Below, one piece after another: positions 37,691 to 63,082 of a stretch of DNA of 64,000 nucleotides. Every line of letters begins with the position of its first letter. Position 1 is the stretch's first letter. A program made the position numbers and the translations under genes. Source of the DNA: Rikenellaceae bacterium (GTDB lineage Bacteria; Bacteroidota; Bacteroidia; Bacteroidales; UBA932); NCBI GenBank assembly GCA_022777205.1, contig JALFGP010000037.1, positions 2,819 through 66,818 of the forward strand, in the 5' to 3' direction. Under the pieces are notes generated by a model that was not told where the DNA came from, ran no database searches, and saw only the letters and a list, made by a program, of their open reading frames with translations.

Positions 37691-37720
37691 TAATGCGCAC
37701 TAATGCCAACTAATGCCAAC
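37691..37720 (+). repeat. Three tandem 10-bp units downstream of a -7 element
   Basis: taatgcgcac taatgccaac taatgccaac, immediately after TACATTTG at 37679-37686. Confidence 0.7.
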
Positions 37721-37736
37721 AATAAAGTCTGACCGC

Positions 37737-40679: not shown

Positions 40680-40748
40680 GCTTTTCTTTAATATCTTTTG
40701 CTGAAATATCAACAAACAATAACACACCTGAACTAATACTTATTTGAA

Positions 40749-43934: not shown

Positions 43935-43946
43935 ATCGATGAAATT

Positions 43947-45680
43947 ATGAGAAATATATATAAAGTATTGATAGGGACATCACTTTCGGCAATCCTGTCT
44001 TCTTGCAGTTTCTTCGATGTCACCCCTCAGGTCATCTGTTCAGAGACTTTTTACAAGACCGAGGCCGAGGTCAAGTACGGGCTTGCCGGTATATACGGGG
44101 CTATGAGCAAGGAGAGTTTCTACGGGAACTACTATTCCCTGATGTATTCAAACATAGACGACCTCTGCTATTTCAACAGGGAAATAGGCACGAATTACCT
44201 CCAGTATTGCCGTCACGACGCAAGCAATCAGTTTATCTATGACATCTGGACGGCTATGTATCAGGGCGTCAACAATGCCAATTCATTTATGGAGGCCGTG
44301 GAGCATTCAGAATTCGACCCGGACGGGAAATATTACAATGAAGCCCGTTTCCTCAGGGCCTATTATTACTTCCTCATAGCTCAGTCCTTCGGTGACGTTC
44401 CTTTGAGGACTTCTGCTGTCAAAACTCCGGAAGAGGTGTATTGCAAAGCCACTCCGCAGTTCGATGTGCTCACCTGGGCCGAGGCTGAAATGGAGGCCTG
44501 TCTTGAACTCGCCGAAGAGGATATCGCAGTCCAGCCTTCCCGAGTGACCAAAACCACAATGCAGGGCATACTTGCGAGAGTGAATCTCTTCCTTGCCGGA
44601 GCGAGTGTGCAGGGAGGGGACAAGACCAAGTTCCTCACCAATGCGAGGGACTTTGCCAATGAAGTGATTCTCAGCACCAAACACGACCTGAACCAGGACT
44701 ACTCACAGGTGTTCATAAATATGTTCCAAAACAAATATGACACAGAATATCACGAGTCCATGTGGGAGGTCGAGTTCTATGGAGACCAGTCCAGTGCCGA
44801 ATTCTGGTCAAACGGACGTATAGGCGACCTGCTCGGACTCCAGAGCGGCAACAGCACATCCACGGAATTCGCCAAATTCAAATGCAATTATGCCCACGGA
44901 CAGTACAATGGTTCCCTGAAGCTCTGGGACCTGTATTGGAAGACCGACAGAACAGATTCTGAAAACCAGCTGGATGTCATCACTGACAAACGTCAGGACT
45001 GGAACCTGCCTCCATACAATTACGCCGGTCACGCCAAGCAGCCGCCTTACGGTACTACTGGTTCGGGCACTTGTGTGGCAGGAATTGACAAGACTCCTTA
45101 TGTCTATGGCAAGGACGCGACCACCAAAAAGGACTTGACGACTACCACGACTCCTACTACTGCCCAGGCCATACGCAACTGCGGTAAGTTCAGAAGGGAA
45201 GTGCAGTATGAGGGCCAAAAGACGGCAAAGCGTCTGTACAACTGCATCAACTATCCTATACTCCGCTATTCAGACGTGCTCCTGATGTATGCCGAGGCAA
45301 GCAATGAACTTTCCGGTCCGACTCAGGAGGCCTATGATGCCGTGCTGAAGGTCAGGACCAGAGCCGGAATCTCGACCAAGGCTTACAGTGAGTACGACCA
45401 GGCTTCTTTCCGCGAACTTGTGCGCAATGAGAGGGGGCGCGAGCTCTGTTTCGAAGGCTTACGCCGTTTCGACCTCATACGCTGGGGCATCTACGTGGAG
45501 GCAATGCACAGTTATTCCGAACAGACGGCTGACAGCAGATGGTCCCAGAGTGCTGCTCTTGCAGCCAGGGCTCTCGATATGGGCGGTAACATCCAAAAAC
45601 GGCACGAACTTCTGCCTATTCCTTCCATTGAACTCGGATCCAATAAGGAACTTGTTCAGAACTCTTTGTGGGCTAATTAA
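43947..45680 (+). CDS. susD: SusD/RagB surface glycan-binding lipoprotein
   Basis: Lipobox LSSC, EARFLRAYYYF..FGDVP, RYSDVLLMYAEA and ERGRELCFEG.RRFDLIRWG motifs. Confidence 0.96.
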   Translation: MRNIYKVLIGTSLSAILSSCSFFDVTPQVICSETFYKTEAEVKYGLAGIYGAMSKESFYGNYYSLMYSNIDDLCYFNREIGTNYLQYCRHDASNQFIYDIWTAMYQGVNNANSFMEAVEHSEFDPDGKYYNEARFLRAYYYFLIAQSFGDVPLRTSAVKTPEEVYCKATPQFDVLTWAEAEMEACLELAEEDIAVQPSRVTKTTMQGILARVNLFLAGASVQGGDKTKFLTNARDFANEVILSTKHDLNQDYSQVFINMFQNKYDTEYHESMWEVEFYGDQSSAEFWSNGRIGDLLGLQSGNSTSTEFAKFKCNYAHGQYNGSLKLWDLYWKTDRTDSENQLDVITDKRQDWNLPPYNYAGHAKQPPYGTTGSGTCVAGIDKTPYVYGKDATTKKDLTTTTTPTTAQAIRNCGKFRREVQYEGQKTAKRLYNCINYPILRYSDVLLMYAEASNELSGPTQEAYDAVLKVRTRAGISTKAYSEYDQASFRELVRNERGRELCFEGLRRFDLIRWGIYVEAMHSYSEQTADSRWSQSAALAARALDMGGNIQKRHELLPIPSIELGSNKELVQNSLWAN

Positions 45681-45691
45681 TTGACTATGAT

Positions 45692-46663
45692 ATGAAAAGA
45701 TACATTTTTATTTTTGCATCCCTGTTTCTTGCCATTTCCTGTCAGCAGGACATTGTGTATGAGGCAGACTATGTGGTTACTCTTGACAAGAGCAACACAT
45801 ATATTGCCGGTACTCCGGTACGTTTCAATTTCAGCGGGAATGTGGACAATATCCTGTTTTACAGCGGTGAAAGCGGCTCCCAATACAAATTCAAGGACAG
45901 ATTCGAGGTGCCTATGGAGGCTGTGAAGGGAGCAGAACTCTCCATTGATTACAAGCCGAGATATGGAGAAGCAGGGGCTTTGGAGGTCTATGTCTCCAAG
46001 GAGTTCACCGGTTTGGACGGCAGTGACGGACTTGCTGACCGTCAGACCATAAAGAAAATGGTTGATGGAGGAATGCAGGGCTGGACCAAGCTTGAATACA
46101 AGGAAGGTGCATCCGACAAATGGACTTACCAGAGCTATGACGTGTTTGACGCCAAGGATAATTTTTCAATAGCCTTTCACTGGTGCCCTAAGGATTTCAC
46201 CAAGACTCAGAGATGGTATCTTGTCAATGGACTGCTTACTATGGACCTGGATGTCGAGGGAATGGATTGTTCGGAGATTGACCTCAGAAGTATGGACCTG
46301 GTGTCAGTGATGATGAATGAGGAGGTGGAAGACCCTTATCTGAAGGATGGCGGAAACGGTACCGTGAATTTCAACAAGACTGATGCCCAGATTGTTATGC
46401 AGGGCGTTTCCGGAAACCAGTTGAAATATGCCATTGATGCCTGGGTGATTTCCAGACCGATTCCGTTGAACAAGGTTGTAAATGACAAGGGAACAGTCAT
46501 CAAGAATCTTCAAAACTATCTCCACAGTTTCGAGTACACCTGGGATGAGCCGGGCACCTACACCGTGACCTTCGTAGGAATCAATGCCAATGTCGCTGCG
46601 ACTTCCCGGCAAATTCACGAGATGACTATCAATGTCCTTGCCCCTCCGTTTACAGAGGAATAA
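45692..46663 (+). CDS. DUF5017-like surface lipoprotein (third gene after susC/D)
   Basis: Lipobox AISC, AG.PV.FNFSGN.DNI.FYSGE.G.QY and C-terminal PGTYTVTFV..N (PKD-like). Confidence 0.75.
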   Translation: MKRYIFIFASLFLAISCQQDIVYEADYVVTLDKSNTYIAGTPVRFNFSGNVDNILFYSGESGSQYKFKDRFEVPMEAVKGAELSIDYKPRYGEAGALEVYVSKEFTGLDGSDGLADRQTIKKMVDGGMQGWTKLEYKEGASDKWTYQSYDVFDAKDNFSIAFHWCPKDFTKTQRWYLVNGLLTMDLDVEGMDCSEIDLRSMDLVSVMMNEEVEDPYLKDGGNGTVNFNKTDAQIVMQGVSGNQLKYAIDAWVISRPIPLNKVVNDKGTVIKNLQNYLHSFEYTWDEPGTYTVTFVGINANVAATSRQIHEMTINVLAPPFTEE

Positions 46664-46684
46664 AGACTGATTTGTATGATTTTC

Positions 46685-46716
46685 CCGTCCGGACTTCAAA
46701 CTCCGGGCGGTTTTTT
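46685..46716 (+). terminator. Intrinsic terminator or attenuator between DUF5017 and the sulfatase
   Basis: ccgtccgga-cttcaaac-tccgggcgg followed by TTTTTT. Confidence 0.75.
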
Positions 46717-46726
46717 CCTTAAAATT

Positions 46727-48286
46727 ATGAATCCAAAACCGACTGACACTTTGCTGCCCATAGTAATGCTTGCAGCCCCCGCAGCACTGCTCTCTACTTC
46801 CTGCAGCACCACTGGACCGCAGCCCAAACCCAACATTCTGCTGATTGTGGCCGATGATTTGGGTCTGGGAGACCTGAGCTGCTATGGCTCCCAACACATA
46901 AGTACCCCTCACATAGACTCCCTGGCAGACGGAGGCCTGCGCTTTCAGAACTGCTACGCAACCAGTGCCACATCCACCCCGAGCCGTTTCGCCCTTTTTA
47001 CAGGAATGTACCCGTGGAGAAACCCGGATGCAAAAATCCTTGCCGGTGACGCGCCCCTGCTGATTGACCCTTCTTTGCCGACCTTGCCGAAAATGATGCA
47101 GGAGATGGGTTATGCCACAGCGGCAATAGGCAAATGGCACCTTGGTATGGGCTACGGCAGGCTCGACTGGAACAAGCCTATTGTCCCTTCAGGCAATACC
47201 GTGGGTTTTGACTACACGAACCTCATCCCGGCCACTGTGGACCGCGTTCCTACGGTCTATGTGGAGAACGGAATGGTGCTTGGCCTGGATGAGTCAGATC
47301 CGATTTATGTGGATTATGAGAAAAATTTTGAAGGTGAGCCTTCAGCCCTGACAAACCCTGAACTTATGACTATGCCCTGGCTGCACGGCCATCAGGGTAC
47401 TATAGTGGACGGAGTGCCCCGAATAGGGTATATGAAAGGGGGCCATTCAGCGCGTTGGAACGACCGCACTATGGCAGATTATTTCCTTTCCAAAGTCACT
47501 TCCTTCATTGAGTCGCATAAGGACGAGCCTTTCTTCCTCTATTACGGCCTTCACGAGCCCCACGTTCCGAGAGTGCCTGCAACCCGCTTCGTGGGTTCGA
47601 GCGGCCTCGGCTGCAGGGGAGACGCTGTGGTGGAGGCTGACTGGTGTGTGGGTCAGGTTATTGCCAAACTCAGGCAGGAAGGTCTGTTGGAGAATACCAT
47701 AGTCATTATCACATCGGACAATGGAGCAGTGCTTCAGGACGGCTATGATGACGGAGCATTGGAAATTGCCACTGCAATGGGCCACGACCCGGACAATGGC
47801 CTGAGGGGTGGCAAATACAGCCTCTACGATGCCGGAACTCATATCCCTTTCATAGTCTATTGGAAAGGCAATATCACTCCTGCCGTTTCCGGGGCTTATT
47901 ACTGCCAGATGGACCTCTATGCAACCTTTGCGACTATGCTTGGTGCCGAATCGCCGGAAGGTCTTGACAGTGAGTCCTACCCGGATGTCCTCCTGGGCAG
48001 GCAACTGGAAGGTGGCCGTCCGACCCAAATTATCGAAGCCCAGGGCCGTCTCGCCTATCGTGAGGGCAATTACGTCCTGATTCCGGCCTACAATGGCTCC
48101 AATTTCAATTCCACAGGCAACGAACTGGGCAATAACCCCTATGATACTCTCTGGGACCTCAGTTCCGACCCGGCTCAGACTGAACCTATAGATGCTCCGG
48201 AACTGAAAGCCTCAATGAAGGCCGAATTTCTTCGCCTGACCGCCGGTCTTTACAGTGCTGAAATTGCTGTTGACCCGCTTGAGTAA
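46727..48286 (+). CDS. Ser-type S1 sulfatase lipoprotein (likely GalNAc-6-sulfatase, S1_15-like)
   Basis: PNILLIVADDLG.GD, FGly motif STPSR, GKWHLG, HEPHVPR and SDNG. Start MNPKP at 46727. Subfamily is inferred from context. Confidence 0.88.
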   Translation: MNPKPTDTLLPIVMLAAPAALLSTSCSTTGPQPKPNILLIVADDLGLGDLSCYGSQHISTPHIDSLADGGLRFQNCYATSATSTPSRFALFTGMYPWRNPDAKILAGDAPLLIDPSLPTLPKMMQEMGYATAAIGKWHLGMGYGRLDWNKPIVPSGNTVGFDYTNLIPATVDRVPTVYVENGMVLGLDESDPIYVDYEKNFEGEPSALTNPELMTMPWLHGHQGTIVDGVPRIGYMKGGHSARWNDRTMADYFLSKVTSFIESHKDEPFFLYYGLHEPHVPRVPATRFVGSSGLGCRGDAVVEADWCVGQVIAKLRQEGLLENTIVIITSDNGAVLQDGYDDGALEIATAMGHDPDNGLRGGKYSLYDAGTHIPFIVYWKGNITPAVSGAYYCQMDLYATFATMLGAESPEGLDSESYPDVLLGRQLEGGRPTQIIEAQGRLAYREGNYVLIPAYNGSNFNSTGNELGNNPYDTLWDLSSDPAQTEPIDAPELKASMKAEFLRLTAGLYSAEIAVDPLE

Positions 48287-48320
48287 GGCAGACTTTTTGC
48301 ACTTTCTTTCGCAGACAGTC

Positions 48321-48363
48321 AAAAAAACAGGAGGAACCACCGTTGATTCCTCCTGTTTTTTTT
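48321..48363. terminator. Bidirectional terminator between the convergent sulfatases
   Basis: aaaaaaacaggaggaa-ccaccgttga-ttcctcctgttttttt. Confidence 0.85.
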
Positions 48364-48407
48364 CATTATGTCCGGGGCTGGTAACCCTTTGGTGTCGTAG
48401 GATGCTC

Positions 48408-49952
48408 TTAATGGCCCGGACAACCGGCTGATTCAAGCGCCTTGTCGAGAGTGTTTTCCCTGTGCCATATGTCATTTGCTTCCTCAAGCTTTAGCGCAAG
48501 CGTGTCGCAAAGACTCCTGAACAGTTCCGGATTGTCCTTATAGTCAATGTTGTGCATCTGGTAAGGGTCTTCCTTGTCGTTGAACATCAGCACCCTTTTC
48601 AGGCTTCCGTCCCTGTTGATTGTGATTTCCAGCGTGTGGGTGGAGGTCCTGATTCCCCTGGCGACCGGGAAGAACCCGTGCACCAGTCCGTCCGCCCCAA
48701 GTTCGCCGTTCACATTCCTTATATACAACACTGCCTGAGGCACATCGCAGTCGGCTCCGTTTTCCAGAAGTACCGGAGAGAGGTCCCTGCCTTCTGCACT
48801 TGAAGGAATCTTGTCGCCCAAGCCGGCAAGGGAGAGAAGGGTAGGGTAGATGTCCACAGAACTGAGCATTGTGTCGTCCACGTGTGGCCTCAGTCTGCCC
48901 GGATAGCGTATGATGAAAGGTACGTTGAACGATTCCGTATAAATGGAATTCTTAGGGTCTTCTGTTCCCTGGCTGCACATGGTTTCTCCGTGATCCGAAG
49001 TGAATATGACAATTGTGTTTTTGTCCAAGCCGAGAACTTTCAACTCCTTGAGCAATCTTCCGAACTCTCTGTCCACTCCGGTCACGTTGGCGAAGTAATA
49101 CCTTGCAGCCCCCGCCTTGGAGAGAGTTGTGTCGGCATTAGGGCGTACATAAAGCTCGCTCAGTGACATATCCTTATATATATTATAGTCTTCCTCCATA
49201 CAGTCGTCCAAGCTTTCGTACGGGCTGTGTGGCGGGTTGTAGGCAAGGGCAAGGAAGAAAGGCGCATCCGCTTTCCTCTGTCCGGAGGTGTTGCGCAGGA
49301 ATTCTATGGCCTTGTCGGTCTCGTGTTTCACAGAATATTCCTTAGGGTCGTGCCTCTTTCCTTCAGTGTCCCAATAGTGAGGGTCCTTGTGCACATCGAA
49401 GGTGCCGTAGGAGTACCAGTGGCTGAATCCGTGCCTTCGCTCAGGCGGAGTGTAGGCGTCCCATTCCGGTCTTCGGGAACTTACATATTCTCCCGGATGC
49501 TGAGGGTCATTGGGAGTCGGGAAATCCGCGTGGAGCTTGCCTATGTAACCGCAACTGTAGCCGTTGGCGCTCAGTACGTCGCTTATGCAGACTGCGTCTT
49601 CCCTCAGGCTGCTCTCGGGCCTTTCGGCCATACAGTTGAGTGTGATTCCGCTCCTTTCCGGGTACATTCCGGTCAGGAATATCCCTCTGTAGGGGCTGCT
49701 GAGAGGACAGTTGCTCATTGCGCGGGACAGGACTACGCTTTCCTTTGCGAAATTGTCGAGGTTGGGAGTCCGTACCGGGTCTGCCTGCCAGCCGGCGTGA
49801 GGGGCGAATTCCGGTTCATTCCAGAAAGCCATAGCCTGGTTTCTGAACTGGTCCGGGAAAACATAGATGATGTTGGGATGCTGTTCCTGTGCTGAATTGC
49901 AAGCTATGGTTGCGAGCGATGACAGGGGAAGCAGAAAATTTTTCAGTGTCAT
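48408..49952 (-). CDS. Ser-type S1 sulfatase lipoprotein resembling chondroitin 4-O-endosulfatases (S1_27-like)
   Basis: PNIIYVFPDQFR, FGly motif SSPYR, GYIGKLH, PPERRHGF.HW.SYGT.D.H..P.YW and SDHG. Start MTLKNF at 49952. Confidence 0.85.
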   Translation of the reverse strand: MTLKNFLLPLSSLATIACNSAQEQHPNIIYVFPDQFRNQAMAFWNEPEFAPHAGWQADPVRTPNLDNFAKESVVLSRAMSNCPLSSPYRGIFLTGMYPERSGITLNCMAERPESSLREDAVCISDVLSANGYSCGYIGKLHADFPTPNDPQHPGEYVSSRRPEWDAYTPPERRHGFSHWYSYGTFDVHKDPHYWDTEGKRHDPKEYSVKHETDKAIEFLRNTSGQRKADAPFFLALAYNPPHSPYESLDDCMEEDYNIYKDMSLSELYVRPNADTTLSKAGAARYYFANVTGVDREFGRLLKELKVLGLDKNTIVIFTSDHGETMCSQGTEDPKNSIYTESFNVPFIIRYPGRLRPHVDDTMLSSVDIYPTLLSLAGLGDKIPSSAEGRDLSPVLLENGADCDVPQAVLYIRNVNGELGADGLVHGFFPVARGIRTSTHTLEITINRDGSLKRVLMFNDKEDPYQMHNIDYKDNPELFRSLCDTLALKLEEANDIWHRENTLDKALESAGCPGH

Positions 49953-49970
49953 AATTATGCGCATTTCCGT

Positions 49971-50026
49971 CAAAGTTAGTTCTTTTTTTCGAAATTTTGC
50001 GTAAATTTATAATTTGGTTATCTTTG
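49971..50026. promoter_or_regulatory. Divergent promoters for the sulfatase (-) and GH88 (+)
   Basis: Minus strand TAACTTTG at 49971-49978. Plus strand TTTG 49996-49999, 19 nt, TATCTTTG 50019-50026. Confidence 0.7.
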
Positions 50027-50053
50027 TACAATTGAAACTAATAACTTAAATAT

Positions 50054-51286
50054 ATGAAGAGAAACATTCTTTCCCTTGCGTGTCTTGCCGCAGTTCTTTT
50101 TTCCTGCACTTGCAACGACATAATCCAAGACAACGTCAGAAATGCCGAAAAACAGCTTGCAAGCCTTATTGAGGCATCCGAGGCCAATGACACCATCCGC
50201 ATCCCTTCCACATTCAAAAACGGCGAAATCGAATTCGTCCCTGTGGACGACTGGGTGAGCGGTTTCTTCGCCGGCACTCTCTGGTATATGTATGAGCTCA
50301 CGGGCAAAGAGGAATATGCAGTCCACGCTCAGAAGCACACTGAAGTCCTCCACGAAATCCAGTTCCTCAAGTGGCACCACGATGTGGGCTTCATGGTTTA
50401 TGACAGCTATGGCAACGGACTCAGACTCAAGAATATCCCGGGCTATGACACAGTCCTTGTGAATACCGCGAAATCCCTCGCAACCCGCTTCCGTCCTAAT
50501 GCCGGCATCATCCAGTCCTGGAATGTTGTGGGAGACTGCTGGCAGGCTCAGAGAGGTTGGAAATGCCCTGTCATCATCGACAATATGATGAACCTCGAAC
50601 TCCTTTTCAAAGTGAGTGAAATGACCGGTGACCCGACCTACCGCAACATTGCCATCAGCCACGCCGACAAGACTATGGAAAACCACTATCGCGAGGATAT
50701 GAGCACCTACCACGTTGTGGACTATGATGACGAGACAGGTGAGGTTCGCCGCCGCTGCACAGCCCAGGGCATAGCAGACGAAAGCCGTTGGGCAAGGGGA
50801 CAGGCCTGGTCCATCTACGGATTCACCGTGGCCTACCGTTTCACAGGCGATGAGCGCTATCTTGATCACGCAAAGAAAGTTGCTGAGTATCTCCTTGTGA
50901 ATGAGGATAATATGCCTGAAGATATGGTTCCTCTCTGGGACTTCGACGCAGTGGAATTTGCAAAGGTATATCCTGAATATGAGAAATATGTGGACCAGAG
51001 GGACGCTTCTTCCGCAGCCATCATAGCATCAGCACTTTACGAACTCTGGTGGTACACCCGCGAGGAGCTTTACATCAAATCTGCCGACAAGATGATAGAA
51101 TCCCTTTCCAAGGCTCCGTACCGCGCTGAAATCGGCACCAACGGCGGCTTCATCCTCAAACATTCGGTGGGCAGCATCCCTCACGGAGGCAATATCGACG
51201 TTCCTCTCAACTATGCTGACTACTATCTGCTCGAAGCTCTCATACGCAAGAGACATATTCAGAACGGGGAAAAGCCGGTAGAATAA
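50054..51286 (+). CDS. ugl: GH88 unsaturated glucuronyl hydrolase
   Basis: Lipobox LFSC, WVSGFFAGTLW, HHDVGFM, VIIDNMMNLE, WARGQAW, WDF, DASSAAI and YADYY.LEAL motifs. Confidence 0.93.
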   Translation: MKRNILSLACLAAVLFSCTCNDIIQDNVRNAEKQLASLIEASEANDTIRIPSTFKNGEIEFVPVDDWVSGFFAGTLWYMYELTGKEEYAVHAQKHTEVLHEIQFLKWHHDVGFMVYDSYGNGLRLKNIPGYDTVLVNTAKSLATRFRPNAGIIQSWNVVGDCWQAQRGWKCPVIIDNMMNLELLFKVSEMTGDPTYRNIAISHADKTMENHYREDMSTYHVVDYDDETGEVRRRCTAQGIADESRWARGQAWSIYGFTVAYRFTGDERYLDHAKKVAEYLLVNEDNMPEDMVPLWDFDAVEFAKVYPEYEKYVDQRDASSAAIIASALYELWWYTREELYIKSADKMIESLSKAPYRAEIGTNGGFILKHSVGSIPHGGNIDVPLNYADYYLLEALIRKRHIQNGEKPVE

Positions 51287-51297
51287 CATAGACAGTT

Positions 51298-54200
51298 ATG
51301 AAGCGACTTTCCGCATTTGCAATGATGCTGGCAGTCTGTGCAATATCCTACGCACAGACTGTCAGCGTTGATTACGGGGAGCAAACCGGGGTGATTTCAT
51401 TCGAAAAGATGCCCGGAACGATTTCCTGCAAATCTTCCTCTTTGAACATATCCGATGCCCATTCAAAACTCGGTGACCACTCTTTGGAATGGACCCCGAA
51501 GAAGTCCGGGGCATCGTGGCGTATGGATGTGCCGGTCAAGTTCCTTGCGGTTAATCCCGACCCTGACGACACTGCAATTTCTTCATTCGTGTTCTGGGTG
51601 TATTCCCCTGAACCTGCGGACGGCAGCCTGCATTTCGCGTTCCTCAAGGACGGCAGGGAATGTTGCTGGTTCGACTATTCTCTCGGATTTACAGGGTGGA
51701 GAGGAGCGTGGCTGGGCTTCGACAGGGATATGCAGGGCAAGCCGGAAGAGGGAATGGACTCATTCATAGTCACATACAACGGTAAGTCCCGCAAGCCCCA
51801 TTTCTGGTTCGACGGAGTGATTCCGGCCTCTTTCCAGGATGTGCGCCACCATACGGCTGACTGGCAGGCTCCGTACATCAATGCGGCCACGACCAATTTC
51901 TGGCTCATTCTCAACAAATATTGGGAGAATCCATCAGACATACCCGTGGAGGCGGAACTTGCTGCGGGGCAAAAGGAGGATTTCGCTCTTCTGGAATCCC
52001 GCTTCAAGACTCTCGTAGAGGAAGGCGCGAAGAAATGGGATATTGACAGAATCAGGGACTATTATGACTCCTGGCACATATCCTTCAATGCTGACGGCAC
52101 AATTAGGGGCAAGTCTGTCTGGTTTGTGCGTTATTCCGAGACCTATCTCGACCTCGGGCTGAATGCCAAGAAGGACTTCAAGGAAAACGGGCAGCTGCTT
52201 CAGGACCTGAACGATGCTATGCTGGCAATAGCTATGAGCTGGGAGGATGAGAAGAATCCCGCCATCAAAAAGGAGATAGGAGAGATTTACCTGAACCTCA
52301 CGAGACATCTTATAGACCAGGGATTCCAGGCAGGCAGCGGTATGGGCACCCTGCACCACCTGGGCTACAGTATGCGCAATTTCTACAATGCTCCTGTCAT
52401 AGTCAAGCCTCTTCTCCGTGAAGCCGGTCTCCTTAACACCGTGCAGCAGGCTATGGAATGGTTCTCTGGTTTCGGTGAGGTACGGACCGCGCCGGTGACA
52501 TTGGGAATGGACGTGGATGCCTTCAATACTATGCTTATGGGCCGTTTCGCTTCAGTGGTGATGATGGAAGACACTCCTGCAAAAGCTGCTGGCCTCAAGG
52601 CTCTTTCCCGCTGGGTGGACAACGGGTACAAATATACAGAGGGGCTGAACCCGAGTTTCAAGCGTGACGGTACTGTGGTCCATCACCGCAAATGTTATCC
52701 GGCTTACGCAACAGGCGGTTTCAAGGGTTCCGTGCCTGCAATATGGATGCTTGCCGGGACGCAGTTCGCAATATCCCGTGAAAGCCACGAAATCCAAAAA
52801 CGGGCTTTGCTGGAAATGCGCTTCTGGAGCAATGTCAAGTCTTTCCCGCTGGCTATGTCCGGAAGACATCCCGACGGCAAGCAGACTCTTCTTCAGGGGC
52901 AGTATTCCCTGCTTGCAGATGCCGGCTCTCCTGATGGGACGCAGAAAATAGACAAGGAACTTGCCGAGGCATATCTGCGCATAAGGGGAAATGCTTCAGA
53001 CAAATGGACGAAGAAATTCAATGAAGCAGGCTATGTGGCTGAAAAGGCTCCTGTGGGCGGACACTTTTATCCTTACGACTGCTCGCTTTCCTACCGTCAG
53101 GACGAATGGCTGGTGACTTTTGCCGGACACAGCCGTTATATCTGGGCTGCAGAACATTACAGGGGCGAAAATATGTATGGTCGTTACCTGGCTCACGGCA
53201 GTATGCAGATACTCGGATTTCCGACAGACTATCCCGACAGTTTCGGCAGCGGTTATCGCCAGGAAGGTTGGGACTGGACACATATCCCCGGAACGACTGC
53301 GGCAGCTATTCCTATTGAGGAAATGAAGGCGGATATAATCAATGCCGACGAATTTTCCGGTTTTGAGGAAATGCTGCTTTCTGATGAATATTTCGCCGGT
53401 GGAGTAACTTTGGGCAAGGAGGCTGCAGCGTATTCCTTCATTCTCCACGAACACGACAAATACAATCCGTCCCTGCGTGCCCGCAAATCCTGGTTTGCTT
53501 TCGGGAACCGTATAGTATGCGTGGGCTCAGGTATATGCAATTCCAAGGGGCCTGCTCACACCACCTTGTTCCAGAACAGCCTGGAGAGTGCCGAGGGGAC
53601 TTGTTCCTCTTTCTCCGGGGAATGCGAACTGACTGACCGTCTGGGCAATTTCTACTATATCCCGGATGCGGAGGTGAAATTTGAGAAAGCCCTCCAGCAT
53701 TCTTTCCACGAAGAGACCTGCGCCCCGACAAGCGGGTGTTTCGAGAAAGCATACATTGACCACGGGGAGAATTGTACAGGCGGTGGATATGTCTATATGG
53801 TCGTGCCCGGACCTTCATCTGAAGCCGACAAGGAATTGTTGAAATCTTCTTGTGAGGTGTTGCGCAAGGATAATTCTGTGCATCTTGTGAAAGATAGTCA
53901 GAGCGGGCTTGTGGGCGCATCCGTGTTTGAGGCCGGTACGGTGGACAATGTCATCTTGCAGGCAAGCCAGTCGGTTATGATTTATGCTCTTGAAGGAGAT
54001 AGACTTTCCATCGCCGTGGCGAATCCTGACCTGGCAATCTATGCCGGAGTGTCAGATGAAGTCTTTGACGAAAAGGGCAAGCGGGTCGAAAGGAGCATTT
54101 ACGGACGCGACTGGGTGAATAATCCAGCTGCGGAAACATCTGTGACTTTCGTCCTGAACGGTGAGTGGAAACTGGAGGCCTATATCTGTGGAGGTGGACT

Positions 54201-54312
54201 TGAATGTTACGAAAGCTTCACTCCGACTGTGACCGTGTCCGACGGCAAGACCACGGTGATTGTGAAGACCAAAGAGTGCCGCACTGAGGAGCTTAGATTT
54301 AGAAAAATTTAA
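51298..54312 (+). CDS. PL8 chondroitin sulfate ABC lyase (second paralogue)
   Basis: Signal peptide YA|Q, GWRGAW, HHLGYSMR, VHHRKCYPAY, MSGRHP, GWDWTHIPG and KSWFAFGNRIV motifs. Confidence 0.9.
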   Translation: MKRLSAFAMMLAVCAISYAQTVSVDYGEQTGVISFEKMPGTISCKSSSLNISDAHSKLGDHSLEWTPKKSGASWRMDVPVKFLAVNPDPDDTAISSFVFWVYSPEPADGSLHFAFLKDGRECCWFDYSLGFTGWRGAWLGFDRDMQGKPEEGMDSFIVTYNGKSRKPHFWFDGVIPASFQDVRHHTADWQAPYINAATTNFWLILNKYWENPSDIPVEAELAAGQKEDFALLESRFKTLVEEGAKKWDIDRIRDYYDSWHISFNADGTIRGKSVWFVRYSETYLDLGLNAKKDFKENGQLLQDLNDAMLAIAMSWEDEKNPAIKKEIGEIYLNLTRHLIDQGFQAGSGMGTLHHLGYSMRNFYNAPVIVKPLLREAGLLNTVQQAMEWFSGFGEVRTAPVTLGMDVDAFNTMLMGRFASVVMMEDTPAKAAGLKALSRWVDNGYKYTEGLNPSFKRDGTVVHHRKCYPAYATGGFKGSVPAIWMLAGTQFAISRESHEIQKRALLEMRFWSNVKSFPLAMSGRHPDGKQTLLQGQYSLLADAGSPDGTQKIDKELAEAYLRIRGNASDKWTKKFNEAGYVAEKAPVGGHFYPYDCSLSYRQDEWLVTFAGHSRYIWAAEHYRGENMYGRYLAHGSMQILGFPTDYPDSFGSGYRQEGWDWTHIPGTTAAAIPIEEMKADIINADEFSGFEEMLLSDEYFAGGVTLGKEAAAYSFILHEHDKYNPSLRARKSWFAFGNRIVCVGSGICNSKGPAHTTLFQNSLESAEGTCSSFSGECELTDRLGNFYYIPDAEVKFEKALQHSFHEETCAPTSGCFEKAYIDHGENCTGGGYVYMVVPGPSSEADKELLKSSCEVLRKDNSVHLVKDSQSGLVGASVFEAGTVDNVILQASQSVMIYALEGDRLSIAVANPDLAIYAGVSDEVFDEKGKRVERSIYGRDWVNNPAAETSVTFVLNGEWKLEAYICGGGLECYESFTPTVTVSDGKTTVIVKTKECRTEELRFRKI

Positions 54313-54592: not shown

Positions 54593-54605
54593 GGAGGAAA
54601 TTATT

Positions 54606-56696: not shown

Positions 56697-57491
56697 ATGG
56701 TAAATTTCTCACTTGAAGGAAAGGTTGCGCTCGTCACTGGAGCCGCCTATGGTATCGGATTCGCTATGGCAAAGGCTTTGGCTGAGGCTGGTGCAAAAAT
56801 TGCATTCAACTGCCGTTCCCAGGCAAATATGGACAAAGCTGTGGCCGATTATAAAGCTGAAGGTATTGACGCAAAAGGCTATATCTGCGACGCCACAGAT
56901 GAAGAGGGCGTCAAGGCTATGGTTGCGGATATTGAGAAGACTCTCGGCCCTGTGGACATACTCGTCAACAACGCGGGCATTATCAAGAGGGTGCCGATGC
57001 ACGAAATGCCGGCAGAAGATTTCCGCCAGGTCATCGACATCGACCTCGTTGCACCATACATCTGCGCAAAGGCCGTTCTCCCTTCAATGATGGAGAGACG
57101 CAAGGGCAAAATCATCAATATCTGCTCAATGATGTCCGAGCTCGGTCGTGAGACTGTTTCCGCTTATGCTGCAGCAAAGGGCGGACTCAAGATGCTCACC
57201 CGCAACATCGCTTCCGAGTATGGCGAGTACAACATCCAGTGCAACGGCATAGGCCCGGGCTACATCGCCACTCCTCAGACCGCTCCTCTGCGTGAACGTC
57301 AGGCAGACGGCAGCCGCCATCCTTTCGATTCATTCATAGTGGCAAAGACTCCTGCTGCACGCTGGGGCACTCCGGAAGACCTTATGGGACCGGTTGTCTT
57401 CCTTGCATCAGAGGCTTCCGACTTCATCAACGGCCACGTTCTCTATGTGGACGGAGGTATTCTCGCATACATCGGCAAACAGCCTAAGTGA
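56697..57491 (+). CDS. kduD: 2-dehydro-3-deoxy-D-gluconate 5-dehydrogenase / gluconate 5-dehydrogenase (SDR)
   Basis: TGAAYGIG, NNAG, YAAAKGG, GPGYIATPQT and GGILAYIGKQP. Adjacent to kduI. Confidence 0.88.
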   Translation: MVNFSLEGKVALVTGAAYGIGFAMAKALAEAGAKIAFNCRSQANMDKAVADYKAEGIDAKGYICDATDEEGVKAMVADIEKTLGPVDILVNNAGIIKRVPMHEMPAEDFRQVIDIDLVAPYICAKAVLPSMMERRKGKIINICSMMSELGRETVSAYAAAKGGLKMLTRNIASEYGEYNIQCNGIGPGYIATPQTAPLRERQADGSRHPFDSFIVAKTPAARWGTPEDLMGPVVFLASEASDFINGHVLYVDGGILAYIGKQPK

Positions 57492-60154
57492 TTTTGAACG
57501 TGAGAATCAGATATTTTCTAACCATCCTGTCAGCAGCTGTTCTTCTGAGCAGTTGCGGCAGGAGTTTTTCTGTTGAGGTCAGCAACCCTACAGGAAATGA
57601 CCGTCTTGCCGAAATGGCAGAAATTGACGGTGAACTGATCGCCTCCAAGGTGAAACTGTCCGAAGGAGAGGAATACGGAGTTTTCGACAAATCCGGCGAA
57701 CGCCTTCCGAGCCAGTTCACCAGTGACGGCAAACTCATATTCCCGGTTCAGCTCAATGCTTCCCAAAAACAGACTTTCAAGGTCAAGGCTGTACCTGCGG
57801 GAGAGAATCCTGCCCAGCCTGTGGCCTGCGGACGAGTTTATCCCGAGCGTATGGACGACCTTGCATGGGAGAATGACAAAGTCGGTTTCCGTGCCTACGG
57901 ACCCACACTCCAGAGAAGCGGAGAGAGGGGGTTCGGTTATGATATCTTCACAAAAAGGGGCACTTCCGTTCCCGTTTTGGAGCAACTTTATGCCGAAGAA
58001 ACCAATCCTGCAAAATGGGAACTGATAAGGGAACTCCGCAAGACCGATCCTGCGAAAGCCGATTCCCTCCACCGCGCTGCATCATATCATATCGACCACG
58101 GTTATGGTATGGACTGCTATGCTGTCGGACCAACCCTTGGAGCCGGAGTGGCAGCCCTGATTGGCGACAATGGAGAAATCCTATATCCGTGGTGCTGGAA
58201 AGAGGTGGAGATTCTTGACAACGGACCTCTACGCTTCAGGGCAAAACTCACTTTCCATCCTATGGAAGTGGCTGAGGGTGAGACTGTTGTTGAGACGCGA
58301 ATCATCACTCTCGATGCCGGTTCACATTTCAACCGCACCCAGGTAAGTTATTCCGGACTCAAGTCTGAGCGCGCCATAGTTTCAGGCATCGTGCTGCATG
58401 ACAAGGTAGGAGGCATAGTGGCTGACAACGAAAAAGGCATTATCGCTTACGAAGATCCTACCACCGGACCGGGCAACGGCAAAATCTTCCTCGGTCACAT
58501 AGCAGGGGAGGGCTTCACCGGAACTTCCGTGAACTGGTTTTCCCAAGAGGAATCCGCAACCCGCAACAATGCTCTCGGACACGTGCTTGCCGCTGCATCA
58601 GTTGCTCCTGAATCATCATATACTTACTGGTGGGGCTTCGGCTGGGACCGTTCCGACATAGCTTCCTTCGAGCAGTGGCAGAAGGAACTGGAGGCAGCTT
58701 CCCTTACTTTCAAGACCGTACCGGAGGTTAAAATTTCATCTTTTGACGTGACTAAGATTTTTTCCTACATCATCGGGCTCGGAGCAGCCGTGATGATGCC
58801 TCTGATTTTCTTCATTTTAGGAGTCTGCATCGGAATCAAACCCGGCAAGGCCCTCAAGAGCGGTCTGCTCGTGGGCGTGGGTTTCGTGGGACTTTCAGTA
58901 ATCACCGGCCTCTTGACCAGTGCCCTCGGACCTGCGCTTTCCAAGGTTGTGGAGATTTATGGACTGCAGCTCAAGGTCTTCGATATGGGTTGGCCGGCAG
59001 CTGCATCTGTGGCCTACAACACCACAGTCGGCGCCCTCATCATTCCTGTCTGCCTGGGTGTGAATCTGCTGATGCTTCTCACCAAGACCACCCAGACCGT
59101 CAATATCGACCTGTGGAACTACTGGCATTTCGCATTCATAGGCGCAGTGGTTTATTTTGCGTCTGACAGCATTCTTTGGGGATTCTTTGCAGCCATCATC
59201 TGCTACATCCTCACTCTGATTCTGGCAGACCGCACAGCCAAGAAATTCCAGGGCTTCTACGACGGTATGGAGGGTATTTCCATTCCTCAGCCTTTCAGCC
59301 AGGGTTTTGTGCCTTTCGCGGAGGGAATCAACTGGTTGCTGGACAAGATTCCGGGTTTCAACAAATTGAACATAGATGCAGAGGGTATGAAGAAGAAGTT
59401 CGGTCTTCTCGGCGAGCCGCTCTTCCTCGGTGTACTCATAGGCATAGCAATAGGATGCCTTTCCTGCAAGACCTGGTCGGAAATGGCCAACCAGATTCCT
59501 TATATCCTCGGTTTGGGTATTAAGATCGGAGCGGTGATGGAACTCATCCCGAGAATCACCTCCCTCTTCATCGAAGGTCTGAAACCTATTTCAGAGGCAA
59601 CCAAGGCCCTGATTGCACGCAAGTTCAAGGGTGCGAAGGGTATGAACATAGGTATGAGCCCGGCTCTGGTAATCGGTCATCCGACCACCCTCGTGGTGTC
59701 CCTGCTGCTCATTCCTGTGACTCTCATCCTTGCGGTTTTCCTTCCTGGCAACCAGTTCCTGCCTTTGGCATCCCTTGCAGGTATGTTCTACATCTTCCCT
59801 CTCATTCTGCCTATCACAAAGGGCAATGTGGTGAAGACTTTCATTATCGGCCTTGCAATGATTCTCATCGGCCTGTATTTTGTTACTGACCTTGCGCCTT
59901 ATTTCACTCTTGCAGCACAGGATGTGTATGCTCAGACAGGTGACACGGCCGTGGCCATCCCGGAAGGATTCCTCGGCGGTTCTCTCGACTTTGCTTCCAG
60001 CCCTCTTGCCTGGGTGATATTCCATCTGACTCACACCTGCAAATGGTACGGAGTGGCTGCTCTCGTTATCGGCACCCTTGCTCTTGCAGTATGGAACAGA
60101 ATGAAGATTGTCAAGGCTCAGAAGGCTGACAACCAGAATGATAATAACAAATAA
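57488..60154 (+). CDS. Fusion: DUF4861-like lipoprotein domain (aa 1 to about 417) plus PTS galactitol-family EIIC (GatC-like) permease (aa 421-888)
   Basis: GTG start overlaps the kduD stop. Lipobox LSSC, R.DD.AWENDK..FR.YGP, GILDNGPLR-like segment, then YIIGLGAAVMMP..GWP..NIDLWNYWH..PGNQFLPLASLA with many TM helices, in one uninterrupted frame. Confidence 0.8.
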   Translation: MILNVRIRYFLTILSAAVLLSSCGRSFSVEVSNPTGNDRLAEMAEIDGELIASKVKLSEGEEYGVFDKSGERLPSQFTSDGKLIFPVQLNASQKQTFKVKAVPAGENPAQPVACGRVYPERMDDLAWENDKVGFRAYGPTLQRSGERGFGYDIFTKRGTSVPVLEQLYAEETNPAKWELIRELRKTDPAKADSLHRAASYHIDHGYGMDCYAVGPTLGAGVAALIGDNGEILYPWCWKEVEILDNGPLRFRAKLTFHPMEVAEGETVVETRIITLDAGSHFNRTQVSYSGLKSERAIVSGIVLHDKVGGIVADNEKGIIAYEDPTTGPGNGKIFLGHIAGEGFTGTSVNWFSQEESATRNNALGHVLAAASVAPESSYTYWWGFGWDRSDIASFEQWQKELEAASLTFKTVPEVKISSFDVTKIFSYIIGLGAAVMMPLIFFILGVCIGIKPGKALKSGLLVGVGFVGLSVITGLLTSALGPALSKVVEIYGLQLKVFDMGWPAAASVAYNTTVGALIIPVCLGVNLLMLLTKTTQTVNIDLWNYWHFAFIGAVVYFASDSILWGFFAAIICYILTLILADRTAKKFQGFYDGMEGISIPQPFSQGFVPFAEGINWLLDKIPGFNKLNIDAEGMKKKFGLLGEPLFLGVLIGIAIGCLSCKTWSEMANQIPYILGLGIKIGAVMELIPRITSLFIEGLKPISEATKALIARKFKGAKGMNIGMSPALVIGHPTTLVVSLLLIPVTLILAVFLPGNQFLPLASLAGMFYIFPLILPITKGNVVKTFIIGLAMILIGLYFVTDLAPYFTLAAQDVYAQTGDTAVAIPEGFLGGSLDFASSPLAWVIFHLTHTCKWYGVAALVIGTLALAVWNRMKIVKAQKADNQNDNNK

Positions 60155-60163
60155 TTATTCGAT

Positions 60164-61108
60164 ATGTACAAAAGAATGATAATTTCCGCCCTGCTTATGT
60201 CAGTGGCTCTCACAGCTTCTGCGCAGTTGAACTACACTGTCCAGACAGCTTGTCACCCCTTGGATGTGAAACACTATGACACTGAGCGTCTTCGCAGCGC
60301 TTTCGTGATGGAGAAGGTTATGGCTCCGGATGAAATCAACCTCACCTACACCCTTTACGACCGTCTCATCTATGGCGGAGTGATGCCTGTGACCAAGACT
60401 CTCGTGCTTGAGACTTTCCACGAGCTCAAGGCTGAACATTTCCTCGACCGCAGGGAACTCGGTGTCATCAATATCGCCGGAGACGGAATCGTGACTGTCG
60501 ATGGGAAAGAGTATCTGCTCAAATTCAAGGAGGCACTTTATGTAGGTTGCGGCAAGAAGGAAGTGACTTTCCGCAGCGTGGATTCAGCAAATCCTGCCAA
60601 GTTCTACATCAATTCGGCTCCTGCCTACAAGGAGTATGTCACTCAGCTCATTACCACTGACCAGAAAGCTGATCCTAAAAAATATGCTATTGCCATCTCA
60701 GACCACTACGGAAAGATGGAGGACTCCAACGACCGCATAGTGAATCAGCTCATAGTATGGCCTGTGCTCAGCCGTGTGAAAGGTGGCGGAACAAACCAGC
60801 TCCAGATGGGACTTACCGAGCTTATGCCTGGTTCTGTCTGGAACACCATGCCGGCACACACCCACACCCGTCGTATGGAAGCATATTTCTATTTCAATGT
60901 GGCTGAAGGCAACGCAATATGCCATCTTATGGGTGAGCCTCAGCAGGAGCGTCTCATCTGGCTCCATAACGAGCAGGCTGTGACATCCCCTGAGTGGTCC
61001 ATCCACGCCGCTGCAGGTACACGCAACTACACCTTCATCTGGGGTATGGCTGGTGAGAACCTCAATTATGCAGACAAGGATGAAATCCGTTATATTGATA
61101 TGAGATAA
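60164..61108 (+). CDS. kduI: 5-dehydro-4-deoxy-D-glucuronate isomerase with an N-terminal signal peptide
   Basis: [66 protein letters not shown]-terminus [20 protein letters not shown]|Q. Confidence 0.93.
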
Positions 61109-61113
61109 TTGTG

Positions 61114-61144
61114 TCTCCGGTGCTTCCTGTGCCGGAGATTTTTT
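61114..61144 (+). terminator. Hairpin plus T-run between kduI and kdgK
   Basis: tctccggtgc-ttcct-gtgccggaga followed by TTTTTT. Confidence 0.6.
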
Positions 61145-61159
61145 AGATTACTTAAGATA

Positions 61160-62200
61160 ATGGCAAAAGTTATTACATTCGGTGAGATTATGCTCAGGCT
61201 TTCAACTCCGGGCTATCTCCGTTTTTCTCAGGCAAAACAGTTTGAAGCCACTTTCGGTGGCGGTGAGGCCAATGTAGCTGTATCTCTTGCAAACTACGGC
61301 ATTGATGCAGAATTCGTAACCCGTCTTCCGAAGAACGACATCGCTGCAAGTTGTGTGAAGGACCTTCGCAGTTATGGCGTCAAGACCGACAATATAATTT
61401 ACGGAGGTGACCGTCTCGGTATTTATTTCCTTGAGACAGGTGCAGTTGCGCGTCCAAGCAAGGTGGTTTACGACCGCGCTCATTCTTCCATCTCAACCAT
61501 CGAAAAGGGTATGATTGACTGGGACAAGGTGTTCAAAGGTGCAGACTGGTTCCATTGGACAGGCATTACTCCGGCCATCAGCCAAGGTGCTGCAGATGTT
61601 TGCCTTGAGGCTGTAAAAGCTGCGAACCGTCTTGGCGTGACAGTTTCCTGCGACCTCAACTACCGTAAGAATCTCTGGAAATACGGCAAGACTGCTTCAG
61701 AGGTGATGCCTGAACTGGTGGCCTGCAGTGATGTGATTCTGGGCAATGAAGAGGATGCTGAAAAGGTCTTCGGAATCAAGCCTGAGGGCTTTGATGTGAC
61801 TGCAACCAAGGGTGAAGTGAATGCTGCGGAATTCGAGAGTGTATGCCGTCAGCTGATGGAGAAGTTCCCTCGTGCAAAGAAGGTTATCATTACTCTTAGA
61901 GGAAGCATCAATGCCAACCACAACACTTGGGGCGGAGTGCTTTTCAGTGATGGAAAACTCTATCAGTCACCTCGTTATGACATTACCCATATCGTGGACC
62001 GAGTTGGTGGTGGTGACTCTTTTATGGGCGGACTGATTTATGGTCTGCTGACATATACCGATGACGACCAGAAGGCTCTGAATTTTGCGGTGGCTGCTTC
62101 CTGCCTCAAGCATACCATTTTCGGAGACTATAACCAGGTGAGCGTTGCCGAGGTGGAGAATCTGATGAAGGGTGACGGGTCCGGTCGCGTGTCCAGATAA
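61160..62200 (+). CDS. kdgK: 2-dehydro-3-deoxygluconokinase (PfkB family)
   Basis: FGEIMLRL, GGGEANVA, DLNYR.NLW and VDRVGGGDSF. Start MAKVIT at 61160. Confidence 0.92.
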   Translation: MAKVITFGEIMLRLSTPGYLRFSQAKQFEATFGGGEANVAVSLANYGIDAEFVTRLPKNDIAASCVKDLRSYGVKTDNIIYGGDRLGIYFLETGAVARPSKVVYDRAHSSISTIEKGMIDWDKVFKGADWFHWTGITPAISQGAADVCLEAVKAANRLGVTVSCDLNYRKNLWKYGKTASEVMPELVACSDVILGNEEDAEKVFGIKPEGFDVTATKGEVNAAEFESVCRQLMEKFPRAKKVIITLRGSINANHNTWGGVLFSDGKLYQSPRYDITHIVDRVGGGDSFMGGLIYGLLTYTDDDQKALNFAVAASCLKHTIFGDYNQVSVAEVENLMKGDGSGRVSR

Positions 62201-62413: not shown

Positions 62414-63082
62414 ATGGCTAAATACAATAAACAACAGGTTTTGGCGGCAGTTGAGAGCACTGGAATGGTTCCGGTGTTCTACAACTCCGACATTGAGATT
62501 TCAAAGGCTGTGGTGAAGGCCTGCTATGATGGCGGCGTGAGAGCTTTTGAGTTTACAAACAGGGGAGACTTCGCACACGAGGTTTTCGGAGAATTGGTGA
62601 AGTATGCCAACGCTGAACTCCCGGGAATGATACTGGGAGTGGGTTCAGTGGTTGACCCGGCCACTGCTGCTCTCTATCTGCAGCTTGGAGCAAACTTCGT
62701 GGTTGGTCCTTTGTTCAATCCGGACATAGCTCCCGTCTGCAACCGTCGTCTGGTTCCATACTGCCCGGGTTGCGGTACCGTTTCGGAAGTGGGCAAGGCT
62801 CAGGAACTGGGTTGCGACCTTTGCAAGGTATTTCCGGGTGACGTGCTTGGCCCGGCTTTCGTGAAAGGCCTGCGTGCCCCAATGCCGTGGAGCAAGATTA
62901 TGGTGACAGGCGGTGTGAAACCGACCCGCGAAAATCTCGAAGGATGGTTCAAAGCCGGTGTGACCTGCGTAGGAATGGGCAGCAACCTCTTCCCGAAAGA
63001 AGCCGTAGCAGCCAAAGACTGGTCAGTAATCACCAGACTCTGCCGCGAAGCCCTCGACATAATAGCAGACATTCGAAAATAA
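62414..63082 (+). CDS. eda: KDPG/KHG aldolase
   Basis: [25 protein letters not shown] and TGGV motifs. Confidence 0.93.

Follow-up and report, generated by a model that had tools for sequence, protein, structure and literature searches.

A single open reading frame (ORF) that joins a DUF4861 lipoprotein domain in frame to a galactitol-type EIIC permease domain of the phosphotransferase system (PTS) was found at positions 57488..60154 (+ strand) of a 64,000-nucleotide stretch of contig JALFGP010000037.1 from Rikenellaceae bacterium (assembly GCA_022777205.1). This whole stretch is referred to as the window. The fusion is genuine, conserved, and recurrent. It sits in a kdu operon, and its product is probably a phosphorylation-independent importer of a GH88-derived keto-deoxy-uronate, which would be fed by the tethered periplasmic DUF4861 partner and in which the fusion would be selectively maintained. 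We infer the topology from homologous proteins, and likewise infer the substrate and the mode of action of DUF4861 (binding or catalysis).

The frame is the sole ORF listed at 57488..60154; it comprises 888 codons plus the stop codon, starts with GTG, and its 888-aa translation contains no internal stop. A type II (lipoprotein) signal peptide with the lipobox L-S-S-C at its end was recognized by sequence reading at 57488..57556 (+). The N-terminus (..RIRYFLTILSAAVLLSSC, followed by G) is that of a lipoprotein, and Cys23 (57554-57556) is the first residue of the mature protein. GTG at 57488, TTG at 57494, and GTG at 57500 are candidate starts, and the 98%-identical protein P0002 carries ATG at the position matching 57494. 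This uncertainty of a few codons has no bearing on the mature fusion protein. Pfam assigned DUF4861 (PF16153) to aa 31-405 (7e-81) and EIIC-GAT (PF03611) to aa 427-811 (1e-77; model positions 1-386 of 394). The NCBIfam model BT_3233_fam (NF058564) matched with 353 bits, above its cut-off of 320, at model positions 1-347 of 354, and TIGR00827 (EIIC-GAT) scored 379.6 bits, below its equivalog cut-off of 542.2. The DUF4861/BT3233-family periplasmic domain was placed at 57578..58702 (+) on the basis of Pfam, NCBIfam, AlphaFold2 (AF2), and Foldseek. The GatC-type EIIC permease domain (aa 421-888) was placed at 58748..60154 (+) on the basis of phmmer, Foldseek, and the published GatC topology; this half has 11 transmembrane (TM) helices plus hairpins and a Lys/Arg-rich cytoplasmic C-terminal tail.

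DNA alignment, a junction table, and AF2 located the fusion junction at 58736..58756 (+), where TCA TCT TTT GAC GTG ACT AAG encodes S417-K423. V421 corresponds to GTG at 58748, which occupies the position of the start ATG in alignments with unfused EIIC genes. The ORF and both domain libraries thus agree with the initial annotation, which had described a single 888-codon frame consisting of a lipoprotein domain and, from V421 at this GTG, a GatC-like domain. No second copy of DUF4861 or EIIC was found elsewhere in the 95%-complete, 140-contig draft genome. Therefore, the function of DUF4861 can be delivered only within the fused polypeptide. In the NCBI annotation of the source contig (77,141 nt), a 468-aa EIIC (MTKIFSY...; P0243) is started at the internal GTG, and the fused architecture is therefore missing from the public record of this contig, in which the DUF4861 half presumably has no annotation or carries a flag. 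Public annotation names fused homologues 'DUF4861 family protein'.

Conservation and recurrence of the fusion

Close relatives were found to carry the fusion. The cluster of P0002 (98% identical) has 283 members, 40 of which were read and 15 of those listed; 12 of the 15 listed members are fused, have lengths of 884-887 aa, and derive from independent assemblies. The complete proteins among those read have this fused form. P0003, which is encoded on a pig-gut metagenome contig in the order kduD-fusion-kduI-eda, is 88% identical. Its junction peptide, SSFDVTK, is the same as that of the source protein, and the underlying codons are synonymous (TCA TCT TTT versus TCT TCA TTC, and AAG versus AAA). 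In addition, 32 further fused clusters, obtained by clustering at 90% identity, contain both Pfam domains in 852-906 aa and show 54-98% identity. An alignment of the fused clusters demonstrated that the lipobox Cys is conserved and that the linker is short and variable. This Cys is kept in at least 90% of 33 fused proteins and is invariant in 58 DUF4861 sequences, 57 of which are stand-alone.

The initial annotation had noted that the two domains are usually separate genes; this is true in most relatives, in which the genes are often tightly adjacent. In a family sample of 301 genomes, two genomes (G000 and G180) have the fusion, three have the two genes adjacent in frame, two have them overlapping at ATGA, and one has EIIC alone. 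Family-sample rows with one internal TAA were rejected as fusions, since the ORF lists and the DNA show separate in-frame genes (K TAA TAT ATG). The 80 best species-level loci from named records, ranked by tblastn with the fused query, were also compared. Three of them are fused (a Muribaculaceae metagenome-assembled genome (MAG), a Bacteroidales MAG, and a Ca. Cryptobacteroides MAG). DUF4861 is immediately upstream of EIIC in 21 loci and elsewhere in the same locus in 11, and there is no DUF4861 within 8 kb of EIIC in 45 loci, mostly of Bacteroides and Phocaeicola. The two genes are in the same frame in 15 of the 21 adjacent pairs, a proportion to be read with the fact that ranking by the fused query favours in-frame pairs. 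The order conserved in relatives is [LacI]-kduD-DUF4861-EIIC-kduI-kdgK(-eda), in which the stop of DUF4861 and the start of EIIC overlap or are separated by 0-3 codons. EIIC adjoins kduI in almost all of the 80 loci, and kduD, kdgK, and eda are usual as well.

The nearest stand-alone DUF4861 protein, P0122 (70% identity), is encoded in the layout kduD-DUF4861-(2 nt)-EIIC. Its junction reads GTA AAT ATC AAA TAA TA ATG GAA AAA GTG TTC, and that of the fused gene reads GTT AAA ATT TCA TCT TTT GAC GTG ACT AAG ATT TTT. Relative to this unfused gene pair, TAA was lost, four bases were gained, and ATG became GTG. The suggestion that a stop codon was lost therefore holds historically, relative to the nearest unfused relative, but the fusion is kept across a clade of 88-98% identity.

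The fused sequences fell into four groups in the EIIC tree and three in the DUF4861 tree, and well-supported branches force at least two fusion or fission changes in each domain tree. In both trees, the sister group of the source clade is unfused. Furthermore, the cluster of P0007 (at least 90% identity) mixes fused (874/881 aa) and unfused (471 aa, MEQVFSY...) members. The trees and this mixed cluster indicate that fusion or fission happened repeatedly. The DUF4861 sub-lineages involved in recurrent fusion or adjacency are only 34-46% identical to the source domain. In three other fused lineages (L030, L034, and L044), the former ATG of EIIC is GTC, GTC, and ATC, respectively. Therefore, EIIC can be produced only as a fusion in these lineages.

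In the closest EIIC relatives (L035-L043), the genes are arranged differently, as GH88-EIIC-kduI-kduD-DUF4861. The DUF4861 of these loci shares only 28-30% identity with the source domain and represents a distinct DUF4861 subfamily in the same operon. An origin of the fusion by tandem duplication of this permuted arrangement (EIIC-kduI-kduD-DUF4861) was rejected, given this low identity and the kduD-DUF4861-EIIC order already present in P0122. Four of these loci (L035, L036, L037, and L041), with 83-88% identity to the source EIIC, are on contigs that bear the names Firmicutes CAG:460, Gastranaerophilales, Treponemataceae, and Flexilinea; wrong binning or labelling of MAG contigs is the probable reason.

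Co-occurrence was examined in an order sample of 301 genomes, in counts that ignore phylogeny. BT3233_fam was above the cut-off in 43 genomes and EIIC-GAT was present in six, and all six EIIC-bearing genomes (6/6) have BT3233_fam. In the other five EIIC genomes, the two genes are found on separate contigs or, where they share one, about 0.8 Mb from each other. Similarly, seven of the eight named EIIC-bearing genomes have a BT3233-like gene, mostly unlinked, in counts of the same kind. Separate proteins exist elsewhere, both as stand-alone DUF4861 (3244 matches) and as stand-alone EIIC. Adjacency, recurrent fusion, and co-occurrence across genomes back the view of the initial annotation that the fusion is a Rosetta-stone clue.

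Properties of the permease and DUF4861 domains

Neither HPr (PF00381), EI-N (PF05524), EIIA_2 (PF00359), nor PTS_IIB (PF02302) was detected in the 95%-complete genome; the control genomes were positive. The absence of EIIA and EIIB genes from the window, as recorded in the initial annotation, was upheld, and the genome-wide search for ptsI and ptsH gave no EI or HPr match, which makes the permease an orphan. In Bacteroides, which have no PTS energy proteins, the Gat IIC homologue has been suggested to act as a secondary carrier (PMC6281302). Because the genome has no PTS relay, the EIIC domain of the fusion would work without phosphorylation, as a facilitator or secondary carrier.

The EIIC half matched Leminorella grimontii GatC (PDB 9u82) over its full length (phmmer, 1e-79). 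A Foldseek search with its AF2 model returned 9u82 (E 2e-26; TM-score relative to the target (TMt) 0.81) and UlaA (4rp9/4rp8; TMt about 0.7). In the AF2 model of the full protein, only about three residues separate the last DUF4861 strand (413-417) from the amphipathic helix AH1 (421-430). L. grimontii GatC has 11 TM helices and a cytoplasmic C-terminus and starts with AH1-TM1-TM2 of a V-motif scaffold (bioRxiv 10.1101/2025.04.02.646771). From 11 helices and a cytoplasmic C-terminus, it follows that the N-terminus of EIIC, and hence the fused domain, would be periplasmic. Three Lys residues after TM1 (K451, K454, and K457) and the basic C-terminal tail fit this N-out/C-in topology, which is predicted for the fused EIIC by homology. 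A tethered periplasmic lipoprotein domain is thus topologically sound. The model suggests that the exported domain is attached to the static scaffold beside the outward-facing cavity; since DUF4861 would hang on AH1/TM1 of this static V-motif scaffold, it need not hinder elevator transport. P0098, a candidate fusion of a short-chain dehydrogenase/reductase (SDR) to EIIC that seemed to contradict this topology, was rejected; it is a truncated EIIC followed by a KduD fragment and is silent on the N-terminus.

GatC recognizes open-chain sugars and polyols and can move xylose, and its cavity suits C5-C6 open-chain molecules, not disaccharides (bioRxiv 10.1101/2025.04.02.646771). Seven of the 12 GatC cavity residues are kept in the fused protein (W83, N125, W127, H128, S184, P297, and D399, corresponding to W502, N544, W546, H547, S604, P725, and D834). 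The other five are changed (S87A, G182P, T183F, D296S, and F340Y; here A506, P602, F603, S724, and Y768), and D296S removes an Asp from the cavity. Four of the replacement residues are invariant in the Bacteroidales family, and P602 is nearly so. The recognition of open-chain sugars by GatC would suit open-chain keto-deoxy-uronates.

The DUF4861 domain alone was modelled by AF2 with a pLDDT of 91 and a pTM of 0.90. Its fold consists of an N-terminal beta-sandwich, a helical insert, and a galactose-mutarotase-like supersandwich. Many of the residues kept in at least 95% of 69 sequences are invariant polar or aromatic residues; examples of kept residues are D124, W127, E128, N129, R135, Y137, D152, K156, H201, D203, D209, R249, E269, R271, H365, W382, and W386. 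Foldseek returned only distant supersandwich accessory domains (the GH38 C-terminal region, PL26, heparinase III, PL33, and GH92; TM-score relative to the query (TMq) at most 0.48), with no aldose-1-epimerase among the top 50 matches, and a sequence search of the PDB with DUF4861 gave no match. B. thetaiotaomicron mutants in BT3233 show impaired growth on chondroitin sulfate, hyaluronan, and heparin (PMC8121099).

DUF4861 also occurs in other exported fusions, which are widespread. In P0110 (773 aa, 1462 members), it is C-terminal to GH88, and in P0100 (1218 aa), it lies behind a heparinase II/III-like lyase; fusions to GH35/GH97-type, BNR_4, and SASA domains exist as well. The GH88 and lyase fusions together with the EIIC fusion place DUF4861 between the formation of unsaturated-uronate products and their import. 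Capture and hand-off is the favoured role there, although we would give it slightly less than an even chance, and enzymatic conditioning is less likely. A KdgF-like 'linearase' role became less probable, because GH88 already gives the opened product.

Operon context and candidate cargo

As the initial annotation had stated, the fusion sits between kduD and kduI. The gene on its left, at 56697..57491 (+), encodes a KduD-type SDR (annotated family: gluconate 5-dehydrogenase), and its stop codon overlaps the GTG start of the fusion (GTGA). On its right are KduI at 60164..61108 (+), which is encoded by the only kduI of the genome and carries a Sec-type signal peptide (MKK..A.A, followed by Q), KdgK, a PfkB kinase, at 61109..62200 (+), and Eda, the KDPG/KHG aldolase, at 62414..63082 (+). 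All four were assigned by Pfam/NCBIfam. GH88, encoded further upstream, is exported, and KduD, KdgK, and Eda have no signal peptides. The longest kdgK ORF has a TTG start and adds a Cys/Arg-rich extension of 17 residues (61109-61160); the true start is likely ATG at 61160, where the conserved protein begins (MAKVITFGE...).

A chondroitin/hyaluronan-type polysaccharide utilization locus (PUL) lies directly upstream of the kdu run at 37713..54312 and is encoded on the + strand except for one sulfatase. It comprises PL8 (37713-40679), SusC (40749-43934), SusD (43947-45680), DUF5017 (45692-46663), a sulfatase (46676-48286), the sulfatase on the - strand (48408-49973), the exported GH88 (50054-51286), and a second PL8 (51298-54312). 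Between the second PL8 and kduD there is a 622-aa ORF (54576-56444) without a Pfam or NCBIfam match, and a similar 615-aa ORF without a domain match is found upstream of the kdu operon in another genome (G111). The scan of ORFs between 29992 and 63999 revealed no further sugar transporter of the inner membrane. From this layout, the fusion is the sole candidate for a membrane transporter linking the genes for periplasmic degradation with the cytoplasmic 2-keto-3-deoxygluconate (KDG) pathway.

A Sec-type signal peptide was found in the KduI orthologues of all seven relatives (7/7) and in 70 of 71 EIIC-adjacent KduI proteins across Bacteroides, Phocaeicola, Muribaculaceae, and others, including those of Phocaeicola vulgatus ATCC 8482 and Bacteroides heparinolyticus (loci L020-L099). 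Export of the sole KduI implies that 5-dehydro-4-deoxy-D-glucuronate (DHU) would be isomerized in the periplasm. If the KduI signal is functional, the cargo would be 3-deoxy-D-glycero-2,5-hexodiulosonate (DKII); if not, it would be DHU. The initial annotation had named DHU, the diketo acid, or N-acetylgalactosamine (GalNAc) as the substrate. The uronate-derived keto acids are favoured, as EIIC is almost always beside kduI, and GalNAc has become less likely. Reviews of the GAG pathway state of the monomers only that they 'are imported' across the inner membrane, and one from 2022 gives no carrier for the uronate product (PMC9067506).

The proposed mechanism is as follows. The lipoprotein signal would export the polypeptide and lodge the approximately 400-residue BT3233-family DUF4861 domain in the periplasm. 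After a further stretch of about three residues, the chain would enter the membrane as a GatC-type EIIC with 11 TM helices in the N-out/C-in orientation. The cargo would be a periplasmic keto-deoxy-uronate, DHU or its isomer DKII, formed from glycosaminoglycan (GAG) lyase products via GH88. DUF4861 may capture or process the reactive GH88/KduI product and pass it to the outward-facing cavity, and cytoplasmic KduD, KdgK, and Eda would draw the flux inwards. The orphan status, conservation, and predicted topology lend support to the earlier proposal of a non-phosphorylating transporter with a tethered periplasmic capture or catalytic domain.

Alternative explanations and relation to known systems

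Several observations weigh against the importer with a selectively maintained tether. The fusion is a minority state (3/80 loci; 2/301 family-sample genomes), and no fused representative was found among the top 150 at 50% clustering. The ratios of nonsynonymous to synonymous substitutions (dN/dS) were 0.05-0.23, with dS saturated or undefined, and give weak support for selection. AF2 modelled the full protein with a pLDDT of 88 and a pTM of 0.61, which leaves the inter-domain geometry uncertain. The fusions of DUF4861 to several unrelated carbohydrate-active enzymes fit a general accessory module and a partner dedicated to the transporter equally well. In addition, DUF4861 is much commoner than EIIC, and many genomes have DUF4861 without EIIC; dependence would therefore be one-way at most. 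From these genomes and from the lack of linkage in most Bacteroides and Phocaeicola, it follows that DUF4861 cannot act solely through EIIC. Finally, P0058 (769 aa), a cluster with one member, joins EIIC to KduI and has a hydrophilic linker in place of the KduI signal peptide. It argues for a cytoplasmic KduI and DHU as the cargo in its own organism and may be either a genuine variant or a gene-calling artefact.

Four alternative explanations were weighed against the proposed importer. The fusion might be real and translated but tolerated as an accident, with a meaningless tether and with DUF4861 acting earlier in the periplasm, for instance together with GH88 or lyases on unsaturated oligosaccharides. 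Near relatives switch between fused and split forms, fused forms are rare, the genes are neighbours that a small indel could join, and DUF4861 has other fusion partners (GH88, a heparinase-like lyase, GH35/GH97-type, and SASA domains) and is found without EIIC in many genomes. On the other hand, DUF4861 sub-lineages of 34-46% identity are each directly upstream of, or fused to, EIIC, BT3233_fam is present in all EIIC genomes of the order sample and in 7/8 named ones even when unlinked, and the junction stays in frame across 12% protein divergence; we consider such an accident unlikely, though far from negligible. It is rather improbable that the gene effectively gives two proteins, namely a free EIIC from a restart at GTG 58748 and a read-through product that is minor, cleaved, or non-functional. 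As the initial annotation had suggested, this GTG could be an internal start: it aligns with the ancestral ATG and follows an AT-rich stretch, and the NCBI annotation uses the same codon, points that also count against the proposed importer. However, no stop intervenes, so every ribosome that finishes DUF4861 runs on into EIIC, there is no other DUF4861 gene, and the replacement of the start codon by GTC, GTC, or ATC makes such a start impossible in the three other fused lineages.

Another cargo, such as GalNAc, N-acetylglucosamine (GlcNAc), or an intact unsaturated disaccharide, with DUF4861 binding the same ligand, would be compatible with the liberation of GalNAc by the locus, with the lack of another inner-membrane sugar transporter among the ORFs scanned at 29992-63999, and with the varied neutral open-chain sugars taken by the GatC family. 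Across the 80 loci, however, the neighbour of EIIC is kduI, and usually kduD, kdgK, and eda, not amino-sugar genes, and the GatC cavity fits C5-C6 open-chain molecules rather than disaccharides; a different cargo is accordingly judged quite improbable. The genome is a 140-contig draft, and a sequencing or assembly artefact might have removed the stop codon. The chance of this is practically negligible: most listed members of the near-identical 283-member cluster are fused at 884-887 aa in independent assemblies, the 88%-identical homologue shares the junction, and the difference from the unfused relative involves several bases, not one miscall. The sequencing error considered in the initial annotation is thereby excluded.

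The importer reading was compared with known systems. GatC, the galactitol PTS EIIC (TC 4.A.5; L. grimontii 9u82, E. coli), shares with the fused EIIC its fold, family, and 11 TM helices plus hairpins. Unlike GatC, the fused EIIC has no EIIA, EIIB, EI, or HPr in its genome, scores below the TIGR00827 cut-off, has five changed pocket residues, carries a 420-residue periplasmic lipoprotein domain at its N-terminus, and lies in a kdu rather than a gat operon. In ATP-binding cassette (ABC) importers of the OpuA/GlnPQ type, substrate-binding domains are covalently fused to the transporter. By analogy, the fusion would likewise tether an extracytoplasmic domain to a membrane translocator, but its translocator is an elevator-type EIIC without an ATPase, and its DUF4861 domain is a supersandwich instead of a periplasmic-binding-protein fold, with a putative role in ligand handling. 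In the GH88-DUF4861 proteins (P0110), DUF4861 is also covalently attached and exported, and it is joined to the enzyme that makes the presumed cargo; there, in contrast to the source fusion, it is C-terminal to a soluble hydrolase and is only about 40% identical to the source domain.

The orphan galactitol-IIC of Bacteroides (TC 4.A.5.1.4; Zafar and Saier 2018, PMC6281302) belongs to the same subfamily and likewise lacks PTS partners, and the source EIIC is 73-88% identical to homologues from Bacteroides, Phocaeicola, and other Bacteroidales. The Bacteroides genes were described as monocistronic and without an assigned substrate (PMC6281302); unlike in that description, EIIC is beside kduI/kduD here and in about 80 loci, and it is fused to DUF4861 in the source lineage. 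BT3233 of B. thetaiotaomicron (NF058564) is likewise a lipoprotein in a GAG context, and the source domain exceeds the equivalog cut-off and shares 52-56% identity with stand-alone Bacteroidaceae members. BT3233 itself is a free protein, whereas the source DUF4861 is covalently joined to a carrier. In the named Bacteroides genomes checked (B. thetaiotaomicron was not among them), the BT3233 homologue is on a different contig or far from EIIC. No paper linking DUF4861 with the orphan EIIC or describing their fusion was found in the literature. Both families are already known, and the orphan Bacteroides EIIC and the BT3233 phenotype have been described in print.

The fusion joins two loose ends, BT3233 with its GAG growth phenotype and the lone Gat-type EIIC in PTS-less bacteria, and a conserved, recurrent fusion in a kdu operon after a complete GAG locus provides a concrete and cheaply testable hypothesis for both families. 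It is possible, although we advance this only tentatively, that DUF4861/BT3233 and the orphan Gat-type EIIC form a two-part, phosphorylation-independent inner-membrane uptake system for GAG (and probably pectin) products in Bacteroidales, in which GH88 and exported KduI would generate periplasmic DKII, DUF4861 would capture or condition it, EIIC would import it, and KduD would reduce it. If true, this would show an elevator-type EIIC that cooperates with a periplasmic domain tethered to it, and it would be the first EIIC having a dedicated extracytoplasmic partner domain. The KduI step, which has been assumed to be cytoplasmic, would shift to the periplasm, and the inner-membrane step of GAG catabolism in Bacteroidales would gain its carrier.

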